Notes: generated from the sequence alone by a model not told the origin. Counted from the first letter of the stretch, positions 2,702 to 6,530 are shown. The stretch is DNA of 64,000 nt from Polaribacter sp. (GCA_042091715.1 JBELGW010000009.1:5270-69269), one strand, 5' to 3'. Program-made: numbers and translations.

Positions 2702-3154
2702 TCATAAGTAATTAGAGATCATTGAACAGGTAAATTCTAATAAAGCTTCATCCTGTTTCGTAAAAATATTTGCGGTATGAGAGTCGATATCTATTTGTCC
2801 GATATTTTCTCCTTTGACAAAGATAGGAATGACAATTTCAGATTTTACTTTCCAACCACAAGAAATATAATTATCCTGCTCTGACACATCTTGTACCACA
2901 AAATTTTCATTACTCACAGCTACTTGTCCACAAATGCCTTTTCCAAAAGGAATGATAGTGTGGTCTGTTGGTTCTCCCGTGTATTGAGCAAGTTTTAATT
3001 CTTCCTTATCTCCATTCTTGAAATAAAACCCCACCCAATCATAATACGAAACTTGAGCCTCCAAATAGTCGCAAATAGCTTGTAGCTTGTCGCCAATAGC
3101 GTCCGTTCCTTCTAAGATGGTTGCAATAGTTGCTTTTAAATTTTCTAGTTGCAT
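2702..3154 (-). CDS. GAF-domain protein, free methionine-R-sulfoxide reductase (fRMsr/MsrC-like)
   Basis: YDWVGFY, IPFGKGICGQVA, YISC...SEIVIP and IGQIDIDS. Start moved to MQLENLK (3154) because the ORF-track upstream extension looks non-coding. Confidence 0.85.
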   Translation of the reverse strand: MQLENLKATIATILEGTDAIGDKLQAICDYLEAQVSYYDWVGFYFKNGDKEELKLAQYTGEPTDHTIIPFGKGICGQVAVSNENFVVQDVSEQDNYISCGWKVKSEIVIPIFVKGENIGQIDIDSHTANIFTKQDEALLEFTCSMISNYL

Positions 3155-3420
3155 AATGAGATGTGTTAATTGTATTAGAACATGGTTCGTTATAGAATAA
3201 TGCACAAATAACTGAATTTTGTGGCAAATATCTGACAAAAGAGTCGTCTTTTTTTGTCTTCTTGTTGTGTCCAAATCATTACAAAGAAACATCTGTTTTA
3301 TAAGATTATGATCTGTGTTTTTTTTGAGGTCTATTGTTTGTATTCCTTATAAACTGCACGTTACAAGATTGAAACATGAAATAAACACCTCGTTATGATC
3401 GGTTTTTACAAGAATGTTTG

Positions 3421-3428
3421 TATTTTTG
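3421..3428 (+). promoter_or_regulatory. -7 element (TATTTTTG) for the HYC_CC_PP/TBDR/HMA unit
   Basis: TAnnTTTG 10 nt before ATG 3439, implying a very short 5' UTR. Confidence 0.5.
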
Positions 3429-3438
3429 TGCTGATTTT

Positions 3439-3843
3439 ATGACACGCTTTCTACACAAAATAGCATCCTTATTCATGGCAGTAATTGTACTGCTTTCAAC
3501 CATGTCTTTTACAATTGAAAAACACTACTGTGGAGATTATTTGGTGGATATTTCTATACTTGGAAATTTGGAGAAATGTGATATGAAGTCAGAGCAAGCA
3601 GCGGTATTGAAAAAGAAAGACTGTTGTTCAGACGAAATACTTCATGTTGAGGGTCAAGATGAATTGCAAAAAGAAAATTTCAATACACTCCCTATTTATC
3701 AGAAGCTTTTTCTAACCGATGTGTTTTTTAAGAAACTTGCTTTTCTTGATTCAAAAGAAGGGTTGTCTGCAAGAAATTCAGGACCACCCGACCTCCATCA
3801 ATGCAAAAATTTACAGATCTTTTACCAAACCTTTTTAATCTGA
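3439..3843 (+). CDS. HYC_CC_PP family protein (N-terminal hydrophobic helix, Cys motifs, C-terminal GPP)
   Basis: Hydrophobic N-terminus, then EKHYCG, KKDCCSDE and SGPP, ending QTFLI; directly upstream of a TonB receptor. Confidence 0.85.
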   Translation: MTRFLHKIASLFMAVIVLLSTMSFTIEKHYCGDYLVDISILGNLEKCDMKSEQAAVLKKKDCCSDEILHVEGQDELQKENFNTLPIYQKLFLTDVFFKKLAFLDSKEGLSARNSGPPDLHQCKNLQIFYQTFLI

Positions 3844-3916
3844 TTTTACAAAAATTACAGCAAGAAGCCTCTCATAACCAGAAGAGATACGTGTATAATT
3901 TTTATAAAATAAAGTA

Positions 3917-6157
3917 ATGAAGAAAATAGTTGTCAGTCTATGTTTACTGATTCCCATATTATCATTCGCTCAACAAAAATTGAAAGGGATGATTATCGAT
4001 AAAGAACGTTCAAAAGATACGCTAGGAGTTTATGCAGCCAATGTATATTGGCTTGGGACCTCTGTAGGAACAATAACCAATGAAAAGGGGTGGTTTGTAA
4101 TACCCTATAAGAAGTCATATAAACAATTAGTTGTGAGTTATGTGGGTTATAAGACGGATACATTGACCATCACCAACCTTGATCCGATTCGTCATGTTTT
4201 AACTCCGGAGGGGCAGCTCGATGAAGTGGTTCTTTCCAATACGAAAAAGGGCATCCAAAAATCGTTTTTAAAAACTCAAAATACATTTACGGTAAACAAA
4301 GAGGAGCTTTTAAAGGCTGCATGTTGTAATCTATCGGAGAGTTTCGAAACAAACCCGTCTATTGATGTGAGTTTCTCGGATGCGCTAACAGGAACAAAGC
4401 AAATTCAGATGTTAGGGTTAACAAGTCCGTATTTGCTGTTCAATCAAGAGAACATTCCTTCTATAAGAGGAGCGTCACAGGCATTTGGATTAACGTTTAC
4501 TCCAGGTACTTGGATAGAGAGTATTCAAATCACTAAAGGAGCGGGAAGTGTAGTAAATGGTTTTGAGAGTATTTCTGGGCAAATTAATGCAGAGTTGGTG
4601 AAGCCATTTTCAGACAATACGCTTTTTGTGAACACCTATGCTTCGTTAAATGGACGCTTAGAATTAAATACGCATGTCAATCAAAAGTTGTCGGAAAAAT
4701 GGCAAACAGGTTTCTATGTTCATGCCGATTATCGAGGAGAGAAGTTTGATAGAAATGAGGATGGCTTTTTAGATGTGCCTTTGTCTCGACAAATCAACAT
4801 GATGAATCGATGGCAGTATACAGATGCTGCAAAAGGATGGATTAGCTTTGTGAATGTGAGATACCTTCAGGATACCAAGCAAATGGGTCAAATTAATTTT
4901 GATCATGATACAGATGAAGGAAGTTCTGAGGTTTGGGGTAGTGAAATAGCAACCAAACGATTTGAAAGTTCTGCGAAATTAGGCTATGTTTTCCCGCAGA
5001 TGCCTTTTCAAAGTTTTGGGTTGCAAGTTGCCTATAGCAATCACGAACAAGATTCCTATTTTGGTTTGAATTTATACGATATAAATCACAAGAGCTTTTA
5101 TGGAAACCTATTGTTTAACTCCATTATTGGAGATACCAGAAACAAATTTAAAACTGGGATTGGTTTTTCACAAGACACCTATTCAGAGCAGGTGAATCAA
5201 TTGCGCTATGATCGAACAGAAGCCGCAGCTGGAGCGTTTTTTGAGTATGCATACGACAATTTAAATAATTTTAGTTTCACCGCAGGCCTGCGAATAGATC
5301 GGCATACCTATCTAGGGACTTTTGTTACACCTAGGCTGCACCTTCGCTATGTGCCATGGGCAGATGCTGTGCTGCGTGCATCGGTAGGGAAAGGAAGAAG
5401 AAATGCTGCTATTTTTGCCGAAAATCAAAAGTACTTTGCCAGTTCAAGACAGGTGAACATATCAAGTAGTGGTGACAACGTGTATGGTCTGTCTCCAGAA
5501 ATTGCTTGGAATTTTGGGCTGTCGTATTTGCAGAAGTTTCGACTTTTTGATAGAAAAGGAGATGTTACTGTAGATTTTTACAGAACCGATTTTTCGAATC
5601 AAGTAGTTGTCGATGTGGAAAACCCACAGGAACTCTCCTTTTACAATTTAGCAGGAGCAAGTAAGGCAGATAGTTTTCAGATCGAGATGAATTATGAATT
5701 GGCCGATCGATTGGGTGTGCGAACGGCCTATAAGTATTACAATGTTTTTACAGATTATAGCGCTGGAAGGTTTCAAAAGCCACTACAAGCCAAACACCGA
5801 TTTTTTGGCAATATTTCTTATGAAACAGCGCAAAGATTGGAAGATTCACAGTGGAAATTTGATGTTACTTATCACTTTATTGGTGAGCAACGTTTGCCAG
5901 CGACTTTGTCAAATCCTGCAGGCTATCAGTTGCCGATACATTCCAAACCTTACAGCTTGTTAAATGCACAAATAACGAAAGTATTCTCGGAGAAGTTTGA
6001 ACTGTATGTAGGTACAGAAAACCTAACAAATTACAAACAACAAAATCCTATTGTAGGGAGTGATGCTCCTTTTGGCCCATATTTTGATACCACTATTGTG
6101 TATGCGCCAATTTTCGGAAGAATGCTCTATATGGGATTTCGATTTAAATTAGATTAA
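3917..6157 (+). CDS. TonB-dependent outer membrane receptor with Cys-Cys motif in the plug
   Basis: Signal peptide, CarboxypepD_reg-like N-domain (VSYVGYKTDTL), plug region (ELLKAACCNLSESFE; IESIQITKGAGSVVNG), barrel ending GRMLYMGFRFKLD. Confidence 0.93.
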   Translation: MKKIVVSLCLLIPILSFAQQKLKGMIIDKERSKDTLGVYAANVYWLGTSVGTITNEKGWFVIPYKKSYKQLVVSYVGYKTDTLTITNLDPIRHVLTPEGQLDEVVLSNTKKGIQKSFLKTQNTFTVNKEELLKAACCNLSESFETNPSIDVSFSDALTGTKQIQMLGLTSPYLLFNQENIPSIRGASQAFGLTFTPGTWIESIQITKGAGSVVNGFESISGQINAELVKPFSDNTLFVNTYASLNGRLELNTHVNQKLSEKWQTGFYVHADYRGEKFDRNEDGFLDVPLSRQINMMNRWQYTDAAKGWISFVNVRYLQDTKQMGQINFDHDTDEGSSEVWGSEIATKRFESSAKLGYVFPQMPFQSFGLQVAYSNHEQDSYFGLNLYDINHKSFYGNLLFNSIIGDTRNKFKTGIGFSQDTYSEQVNQLRYDRTEAAAGAFFEYAYDNLNNFSFTAGLRIDRHTYLGTFVTPRLHLRYVPWADAVLRASVGKGRRNAAIFAENQKYFASSRQVNISSSGDNVYGLSPEIAWNFGLSYLQKFRLFDRKGDVTVDFYRTDFSNQVVVDVENPQELSFYNLAGASKADSFQIEMNYELADRLGVRTAYKYYNVFTDYSAGRFQKPLQAKHRFFGNISYETAQRLEDSQWKFDVTYHFIGEQRLPATLSNPAGYQLPIHSKPYSLLNAQITKVFSEKFELYVGTENLTNYKQQNPIVGSDAPFGPYFDTTIVYAPIFGRMLYMGFRFKLD

Positions 6158-6158
6158 G

Positions 6159-6530
6159 ATGAAAAAAATAGTATTAATTGTGATGGCATTCTTGCTATCT
6201 GTTTCTGTGCAAGCACAGAAAAAAAATAAAAATGCCAAAGTAACTATTGAGGTAGATGGAGTGTGTATGATGTGTAAAAAGCGGATTGAAACGGCGGCGC
6301 TAAAAACCAAAGGTGTAAAATTTGCCTTGTGGGATTTGAAAACACATCAGTTGCAATTGATTATTGATGAGCGTAAAATAGATGTGACATCAATTCAGAA
6401 AAATATAGCTTTAGTAGGTCATGATACCAAGCCTATAAAAGCTACTGATGCCGCCTATGACACCGTGCATCCATGTTGTAGGTATAGAGACGATGATCCA
6501 ATGAAAGATTACCGAGGGCAGGATGATTAA
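6159..6530 (+). CDS. Exported heavy-metal-associated (HMA) domain protein
   Basis: Signal peptide (SVQA/Q), VDGVCMMCKKRIE CxxC motif, C-terminal HPCCRYRD; 1 nt after the receptor stop. Confidence 0.9.
   Translation: MKKIVLIVMAFLLSVSVQAQKKNKNAKVTIEVDGVCMMCKKRIETAALKTKGVKFALWDLKTHQLQLIIDERKIDVTSIQKNIALVGHDTKPIKATDAAYDTVHPCCRYRDDDPMKDYRGQDD

Follow-up and report, generated by a model that had tools for sequence, protein, structure and literature searches.

Does the small open reading frame (ORF) that precedes a TonB-dependent receptor (TBDR) gene in Polaribacter sp. encode a working protein, or does it control the receptor gene through its own translation? The question is raised by a stretch of 64,000 nucleotides (nt) of DNA from this organism (GCA_042091715.1 JBELGW010000009.1:5270-69269; the whole stretch is referred to here as the window). 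In the window, a 134-amino-acid (aa) ORF named HYC_CC_PP lies at 3439-3843 on the + strand, with its ATG at 3439 and its TGA at 3841-3843, and a spacer of 73 nt (3844-3916) separates it from the ATG of the TBDR gene. The original prediction for this locus was that HYC_CC_PP is a metal-sensing upstream ORF (uORF) resembling CruR of Bordetella, and that a ribosome paused at its Gly-Pro-Pro (GPP) motif sets receptor expression. All of its coordinates were correct, including those of the 134-aa ORF, the hydrophobic N-terminus, the HYC, CC and GPP motifs, the 17 codons that follow GPP and the 73 nt to the TBDR ATG. The idea itself survived in part. Comparative evidence was found for an exported, Cys-containing ORF acting as the cis leader of a metal gene, and the specifics concerning the TBDR, DUF2946, the RAPP motif and the GPP pause were not supported. 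Judged from the sequences compared here, HYC_CC_PP is most likely a CutF-like cis leader of a TBDR-HMA operon, of a kind not yet described for Bacteroidota. The features of the locus are listed below.

3421-3428, + strand: TATTTTTG, the -7 promoter element of Bacteroidetes (TAnnTTTG); 10 nt separate its G from the ATG.
3439-3843, + strand: HYC_CC_PP ORF, 134 aa plus TGA, identified by its homologues and by the NCBIfam profile NF047658 (HYC_CC_PP) at 99.4 bits (curated cut-off 28).
3460-3510, + strand: N-terminal hydrophobic helix, residues 8-24, IASLFMAVIVLLSTMSF, a putative signal anchor or signal peptide (AlphaFold2 (AF2), KD19 and conservation).
3523-3531, + strand: HYC (H29, Y30, C31; CAC TAC TGT), directly after the helix; H29 and C31 are invariant.
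3577-3579, + strand: Cys47, invariant in the alignment of relatives.
3622-3627, + strand: CC (C62, C63; TGT TGT); C63 is invariant and C62 is conserved at >=90%.
3649-3666, + strand: EGQDEL motif, residues 71-76; G72 is invariant, and Q73, D74 and L76 are conserved at >=90%.
3694-3750, + strand: predicted amphipathic helix, residues 86-104, a length-fixed spacer (AF2, KD19 and conservation).
3781-3789, + strand: GPP (GGA CCA CCC) with P116 and P117; P117 is invariant and P116 is Pro in ~92% of near relatives.
3790-3840, + strand: C-terminal tail of 17 codons, DLHQCKNLQIFYQTFLI, conserved as a peptide (amino acids are kept, synonymous codons vary).
3843-3857, + strand: 5' arm of the outer RNA helix, its first base inside the TGA stop codon (RNA fold and family geometry).
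3869-3886, + strand: inner hairpin at the tip of the intergenic stem-loop (RNA fold).
3896-3910, + strand: 3' arm of the outer helix, -21 to -7 relative to the TBDR start codon (RNA fold and duplex tests).
3917-6157, + strand: TBDR, 746 aa, with CarbopepD_reg_2, Plug and beta-barrel (domain matches).
6159-6530, + strand: exported HMA-domain (CxxC) protein, 123 aa, co-conserved with the TBDR (domain match and neighbourhood comparison).

The HYC, CC and PP signature that gives the family its name is thus present in order (H29-Y30-C31, C62-C63 and P116-P117). We followed the family through 41 database homologues (for all of which Pfam PF26622 was precomputed), 80 genome loci that were fetched, 90 near relatives and 38 distant members. 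It was found in 116 of 401 Bacteroidota genomes (~29%), at 1-5 copies per genome, and in 27 of 29 sampled Flavobacteriaceae genomes, the window's own genome counted.

We analyzed the genes downstream of HYC_CC_PP across Bacteroidota. In 128 out of 128 members, it was the first gene, directly upstream and on the same strand, before a gene related to metal homeostasis, which is the position that CruR and CutF occupy. The gap was ~30-300 nt, with medians of 74-176 depending on the class of neighbour. In the near set, the neighbour was an orthologous TBDR (34 cases), a resistance-nodulation-division (RND) pump of the CusA/CzcA family (29 cases; TIGR00914, 785 bits), an HMA-MauE membrane protein that itself precedes the same TBDR-HMA pair (18 cases) or an AraC-type regulator (9 cases). 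The neighbours of the 38 distant members were RND pumps, OEP, exported HMA or HMBD proteins, DUF3347 proteins and TBDRs. In genomes with two copies, each copy headed a different operon. With such a range of neighbours, the family is not TBDR-specific. It had been expected to be tied to TBDR genes, and frequent occurrence away from them had been named in advance as counting against the proposal; CusA/CzcA pumps turned out to be as common a neighbour.

The transcription start is also shared across the family. The box TAnnTTTG was found 4-11 nt before the start codon in 68 out of 83 non-redundant upstream regions, and most of the remaining 15 have TAnnTTTA at the same place. In Flavobacterium johnsoniae promoters, this G occupies position -5, and leaders >10 nt are found on 87% of that species' mRNAs (PMC6847099). 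With the box 4-11 nt from the start codon and its G at -5, the predicted 5' untranslated regions (UTRs) are 0-7 nt across the family. In the window, transcription is predicted to start at ~3433, which would leave a 5' UTR of ~6 nt. The near-leaderless start first proposed for the window alone has therefore been borne out by the relatives and is, on the evidence of their upstream regions, a conserved and unusual family trait. A conserved box just before the ORF makes the ORF the 5' leader of the operon mRNA. In 22 of 90 homologues there is no ATG and the ORF starts at GTG, mostly exactly 4 nt after the TAnnTTTG box, so that the start codon would be the first transcribed base. These relatives would have truly leaderless GUG-start mRNAs, which are unusual for bacteria. 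Loci with a GTG start include L006, L010, L014, L031, L039, L042-L044, L052, L058, L061, L063, L067, L075 and L081 (near locus position 5000).

At the other end of the ORF, we found a helix that runs from its stop codon to the start of the next gene. The spacers are unlike in sequence, and nearly all of them fold as a long outer helix around at least one inner hairpin, which is richer in G+C in most relatives. The intergenic fold has a z of about -2 to -5 at most loci. No consensus structure emerged when 22 spacers aligned with MAFFT were folded with RNAalifold. Since the helices differ in sequence and carry indels, alignment-free duplex tests of cognate versus non-cognate segments were used, in which a 25-nt segment beginning at the stop codon was paired with the 35-nt segment that precedes the next start. 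Pairing of the stop-side and start-side segments was stronger within loci (-9.5 kcal/mol) than between loci (-5.3 kcal/mol; Wilcoxon p = 1e-14, n = 94). The median was -12.1 kcal/mol at 66 HYC junctions and -5.8 kcal/mol at 111 other same-strand junctions in the same DNA (p = 4e-18). Across the family, the helix has a median of 20 pairs; counted from the stop codon's first base, its 5' arm begins at -9 to +3 nt, and its 3' arm ends 0-12 nt short of the downstream ATG or extends over it. A covariance model built from 3 close spacers was dropped as too sequence-specific: at E<=1 it found 7 loci on the + strand, 3 of them its own seeds, as well as 3 matches on the reverse strand.

The geometry of the helix constrains where a ribosome would have to stand. 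The footprint of a ribosome extends some 12-15 nt past its P-site codon. Because the helix begins at the stop codon, a ribosome can invade it only from the last few codons or from the stop. The stop codon is TGA in 88 of 90 near relatives and TGA is usually paired with TCA in the helix. A termination pause specific to RF2, which would act at TGA, was considered and rejected, as it is not family-wide: distant members also use TAA and TAG.

To what extent is the encoded peptide itself conserved? In an alignment of 63 sequences, A14, S23, F24, T25, H29, C31, D37, C47, C63, G72, P117 and I134 were invariant, and H was found at residue 29-30 in 88 of 90 near relatives. Judged from these alignments, the conserved motifs are far beyond chance. 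The N-terminal helix (AF2 helix 2-21, predicted local distance difference test (pLDDT) score ~88; mean KD19 2.06) has K/R residues before it, and it would serve as an export signal, a predicted feature shared with CruR- and CutF-type proteins, that is unusually conserved in sequence. The AF2 model from 63 sequences had a mean pLDDT of 61.7, a predicted template modelling (pTM) score of 0.29 and a Cys region <50, and no confident globular fold. Between EGQDEL and PP, the region is variable in sequence and fixed in length, and so behaves as a spacer. Residues 86-104 form a helix in AF2 (pLDDT ~85) with a block conservation of 0.47. A second transmembrane segment here, acting as a force-generating element, was rejected, as the mean KD19 is only 0.76. 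The spacing from CC to PP is 54-56 residues in 72 out of 73 near relatives.

The end of the peptide is conserved as well. The second Pro of PP is invariant and the first is substituted in 7 of 90 near relatives, so the expected conservation of PP held for one Pro and only in part for the other. The family consensus before PP is D-Y-S-P-P, the window has N-S-G-P-P, and the general context is S/G-PP-D/N. The tail after PP has 15 aa in 75 out of 83 near relatives, 17 in the small clade of the window, 12 in another genus and 10-22 across the phylum; the distance from PP to the stop, also proposed for checking, is thus nearly constant among near relatives and not beyond them. Its pattern is PP-[ND]-L-x-x-D-[IY]-Q-V-L-x-Q-x-F-L-I, in which amino acids are kept and synonymous codons are free. 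The other genus has a different, equally conserved 12-residue tail, PPLFKLYHQYIFY[SA]. This genus (L094-L099, L103, L106, L107 and L110) scores best against NF047658; its tail reads N-A-P-P-L-F-K-L-Y-H-Q-Y-I-F-Y-S/A, and most of its loci retain a TGATTTTAATGTT...AACATTAAAATCA stop-to-start helix.

With the ribosome at the stop codon, the tail residues would lie wholly in the exit tunnel. As these residues are made after PP and are in the tunnel at termination, a stop-proximal pausing module, or PP as a gate, is favoured. PP and the tail would then either form such a module, of a length like those of SecM and TnaC, or limit through PP the ribosomes that reach the stop.

Our judgement leans, though not strongly, towards HYC_CC_PP being a translated leader that acts in cis: by way of the stop-embedded helix it would unmask the start of the next gene, and its exported Cys/His cluster would sense metal in the periplasm. 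In such a leader, transcription would start ~6 nt before the HYC_CC_PP ATG and the N-terminal helix would target the nascent chain to the membrane. The His/Cys cluster (HYC, C47 and CC) would be exposed periplasmically while the C-terminal part was still being made. The intergenic RNA would form a long stem-loop, with its 5' arm running from the stop codon and its 3' arm lying over the A-rich, unstructured region before the receptor start. Bacteroidetes mRNAs without a Shine-Dalgarno sequence need such an unstructured, A-rich region for initiation. Only a ribosome on the last few codons or the stop would open the helix and allow the receptor to be translated. PP, the 12-17 conserved residues after it and the 54-56-residue distance from CC would set the number of ribosomes at the stop and how long they dwell there, and the metal or redox state of the exported Cys cluster would modulate their arrival or dwell, as in CutF and CruR. 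The comparison itself shows the family membership, the leader position, the promoter box, the fixed spacings, the peptide conservation of the tail and the conserved helix with its geometry; export, metal sensing and pausing are inferred, as are which metal is involved and in which direction the system responds.

Several points weigh against this cis-leader reading. The helix in the window is weak when taken alone (-9.2 kcal/mol, z -0.93), so that the case rests on the family. A stop-to-start helix would equally serve plain translational coupling of two real proteins, and the conserved N-terminal residues (STMSFT) and EGQDEL would also suit a protein that has its own function. The same design is found before presumed exporters and before a presumed importer, which implies that the sign of the response differs between them unless the TBDR system is metal-induced too. 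The PP context lacks the Arg needed for strong arrest resistant to EF-P. Any pause at PP may moreover be erased by EF-P. Across the phylum, the number of residues between PP and the stop ranges from 10 to 22, so that no precise tunnel geometry is proven; together with the use of all three stop codons in distant members, this variation argues against a very rigid geometry. In a search of sequencing runs, the window was found in DNA metagenome runs only, with no RNA runs for the locus or a cultured relative.

A bolder form of the cis-leader reading, which we advance tentatively and regard as doubtful, is that HYC_CC_PP is a metal-sensing monitoring peptide used throughout Bacteroidota, neither related in sequence to DUF2946 nor of the RAPP type, and translated from a leaderless or nearly leaderless mRNA. 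PP and the tail (~14-19 residues) would hold the ribosome on the last codons or the stop, opening the helix and switching on the downstream metal genes according to the periplasmic state of the His/Cys cluster. If this is true, a nascent-chain regulatory switch would have been described for the first time in a phylum that lacks Shine-Dalgarno sequences; its targets would be heavy-metal efflux pumps, TonB receptors, metal-binding proteins or an AraC regulator. Post-transcriptional metal sensing by a nascent exported peptide has only two studied cases, CutF and CruR, both from Proteobacteria and both DUF2946 proteins. HYC_CC_PP belongs to an unrelated family with the same overall logic and without an assigned function, and a literature search on the family names returned no paper naming it. 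If the leader works as proposed, it would explain how many marine and soil Bacteroidota regulate heavy-metal efflux and uptake at loci where no regulator gene was seen beside the operon. It would show translational control by RNA masking without a Shine-Dalgarno sequence, and it would add a new module to the catalogue of arrest and pausing sequences. The helix, the promoter box and the fixed spacings make precise and cheap mutational tests possible.

The alternative that survives best, though we consider it unlikely, is that HYC_CC_PP is a genuine small, membrane-anchored periplasmic metal-binding protein, such as a chaperone or an accessory subunit, that it serves whatever metal transporter is encoded after it, and that the helix only couples translation or stabilises or processes the mRNA. 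The His and Cys residues are invariant, the transmembrane residues and EGQDEL are unusually conserved, the C-terminal tail is conserved as a peptide, 134 aa is enough for a protein in its own right, and every neighbour is a protein that handles metal. Efflux operons are known to include genes for periplasmic metallochaperones, CusF being one. However, AF2 found no confident fold for such a protein, and its middle region is variable in sequence but rigid in length, as in a spacer. TBDRs, RND pumps, OEP, soluble HMA/HMBD proteins and even an AraC-type regulator would all need to be partners of a single family. The gene invariably comes first, on a near-leaderless mRNA, and never takes another position in the operon, and where a genome carries multiple copies each heads a different operon.

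Less probable still is the mechanism of the original prediction itself, in which a RAPP-like arrest at GPP (3781-3789) directly sets TBDR expression, as CruR does for BfrG, by preventing Rho termination or by melting RNA structure from that position. The invariance of the second Pro, the presence of the first in ~92% of relatives and the residue after PP, mostly N or D (PPN and PPD make strong pause contexts that depend on EF-P), speak for it, as does the CC-to-PP spacing of 54-56, which resembles the conserved 45-residue spacing from CXXC to RAPP in CruR (PMC9426467) and would put CC just outside the translocon with the ribosome on PP. However, the Arg two residues before the P-site Pro is irreplaceable in the RAPP arrest peptides tested (PMC12992588), and this Arg is absent family-wide in HYC_CC_PP; only the AraC-linked paralogues have Y-R-P-P. 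A RAPP-like arrest motif is thus not a feature of the family. PP stands 12-17 codons before the stop, and 16-18 codons upstream of the helix in the window, so a ribosome paused there cannot touch the helix: its front edge would be about 30 nt or more short. Nor could RNA pairing bridge this distance, as cognate versus non-cognate duplex tests found no locus-specific pairing of the coding RNA from PP to the stop with either helix arm, and anti-sequestor pairing of this kind was rejected. The spacer has no terminator-like site on its + strand; its hairpins lack following U-tracts, and no intrinsic terminator was found in a search not aimed at Rho-dependent termination. The peptide conservation of the tail after PP would be unexplained, and the family is not confined to TBDR operons. 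With 12-17 conserved residues after PP and no such pairing, the critical ribosome position would be at or near the stop, or PP would be only a gate. The gating version, in which a PP pause limits the ribosomes reaching the stop, is possible and has been folded into the cis-leader reading favoured here.

That ribosomes make the ORF's product as the precursor of a Cys-derived metallophore, which the pump would export or the TBDR take up, is highly improbable: a small Cys-rich peptide gene does adjoin a TBDR or efflux pump, but no modifying enzymes were found in any examined gene context, an N-terminal transmembrane helix and a length of 130 aa are atypical of such precursors, and some neighbours are soluble HMA/HMBD proteins or a regulator.

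How does HYC_CC_PP, read as a cis leader, compare with known systems? We found no homology to the DUF2946 proteins CruR and CutF, and membership of that family was rejected. PF11162 (DUF2946) had no match in the genome of the window and none at E<=10 among 28 family members, and hhalign of HYC_CC_PP against DUF2946-like proteins of Bacteroidota gave a probability of 0.6%. No CxxC or CxxxC is conserved in the family, the conserved Cys residues being those of HYC, C47 and CC. In the DUF2946-type proteins the Pro motif is near the C-terminus, and HYC_CC_PP does not share this placement, as PP is followed by 17 residues in the window and by 15 in most relatives.

The closest likeness is to CutF of Rhodobacter capsulatus (operon cutFOG). 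Both are small proteins, exported in CutF and predicted to be so in HYC_CC_PP, with a Cys motif and a Pro motif towards the C-terminus, and both are first in a metal operon. In CutF, which has a Cys motif and a Pro-rich C-terminus, a stem-loop masks cutO's ribosome-binding site (PMC9973294; bioRxiv 10.1101/2025.02.05.636593); likewise, a stem-loop before the next gene is computationally predicted to shield the translation initiation region of that gene in HYC_CC_PP. CutF acts through its own translation, which we count as shared, the mode of HYC_CC_PP being proposed. The relatives of CutF, like HYC_CC_PP, precede OEP, ACR_tran and TonB-type genes, and the neighbour classes found here match those reported for CutF-like proteins. 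There is, however, no detectable sequence relationship, and the Cys motif is CxxxC in CutF and HYC...C...CC here. The Pro motif of CutF is at the extreme C-terminus, whereas in HYC_CC_PP a conserved tail of 12-17 residues (10-22 across the phylum) separates PP from the stop. Unlike CutF, HYC_CC_PP is found in an organism without Shine-Dalgarno sequences, on a predicted near-leaderless mRNA, with a helix that starts in the stop codon itself and masks an A-rich upstream region. A published list of CutF-like proteins has 5,334 entries, and Bacteroidota account for 19% of these (Ozturk et al., mBio 2023, PMC9973294), and some HYC_CC_PP members may be within it.

CruR (Bp2923, Bordetella pertussis, DUF2946) is likewise a uORF (~140 aa) whose product has an export signal and keeps its Cys motif and Pro-Pro a fixed distance apart, and it heads an operon with a TonB-dependent transporter, as does the ORF in the window (Roy et al., mBio 2022, PMC9426467). 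In CruR, which is a member of PF11162, RAPP lies three residues from the end and Rho-dependent termination occurs in a 162-nt spacer (PMC9426467). The ORF in the window differs in that it has no such Arg, fails PF11162 and has a 73-nt spacer filled by the stop-to-start helix; its relatives, unlike CruR, often precede efflux pumps.

The monitoring-substrate arrest peptides SecM, MifM, VemP and ApdA/ApdP and the termination-arrest leaders TnaC and SpeFL resemble HYC_CC_PP in carrying a signal for export or insertion at the N-terminus and a conserved module of ~17 residues at the C-terminus. They too are located directly upstream of the gene that they regulate, where the arrested ribosome opens an RNA structure, arrest being only proposed for HYC_CC_PP. 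The geometry of the HYC_CC_PP helix requires a ribosome at the stop codon, and it is there that TnaC and SpeFL arrest. The known arrest leaders regulate Sec/YidC, amino-acid or polyamine genes, unlike HYC_CC_PP, which precedes metal genes, and its motif resembles none of theirs.

A second type of leader was seen in other Bacteroidota. Two loci (L083:1495-1851, - strand, and L084:1390-1773, + strand) contain small His/Cys-rich ORFs that end in ...SRAPPFA or ...SRAPPQQA and are followed by a small exported protein (lipoprotein) and a TBDR. Like HYC_CC_PP, they are small, exported, His/Cys-rich and first in TBDR-containing operons. Unlike it, they end in SRAPPxx-stop and match PF11162 weakly, and they form a separate family. 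Such SRAPP DUF2946-like leaders, which are canonical CruR-like ones, were not found in the family of bacteria to which the window belongs; their presence in other Bacteroidota means that the two families coexist in the phylum.

A paralogous subgroup of HYC_CC_PP (the second copy, on the - strand, at L049, L051, L053, L056, L057, L059, L060, L062 and L080) has HYCC, Y-R-P-P and a TAnnTTTA box. Its members are located 131-188 nt upstream of an AraC-type (HTH_18) regulator of 193-210 aa, and they adjoin or lie near the copy that heads an RND pump. In these loci the leader peptide may control a transcription factor.

In Nonlabens and Dokdonia (L013:3666-4916 and L033:3666-4919), a unit of HYC_CC_PP and CusA/CzcA directly follows a tyrosine integrase (Arm-DNA-bind_5, Phage_integrase), and the near-identical upstream sequence in the two genera suggests a mobile metal-resistance island. 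At L025:4174-4254, a truncated copy of the N-terminal part of HYC_CC_PP lies ~750 nt upstream of the intact gene and reads ...LAFLVLFSTLSFTVEN, then a stop before HYC.

In the window itself, a small hairpin (GGGUUGUCU...AGGACCACCC) at 3760-3789 pairs the GPP codons with bases 20 nt upstream; a minus-strand terminator-like match spans the same bases, and the hairpin is probably due to chance. On the - strand at 2702-3292 lies a divergent GAF-domain ORF listed as 196 aa. Its relatives align only from about residue 45-47, and its real length is probably ~150 aa, with a start near the Met of MQLENLK. This gene stays beside the HYC-TBDR-HMA unit in many genera.

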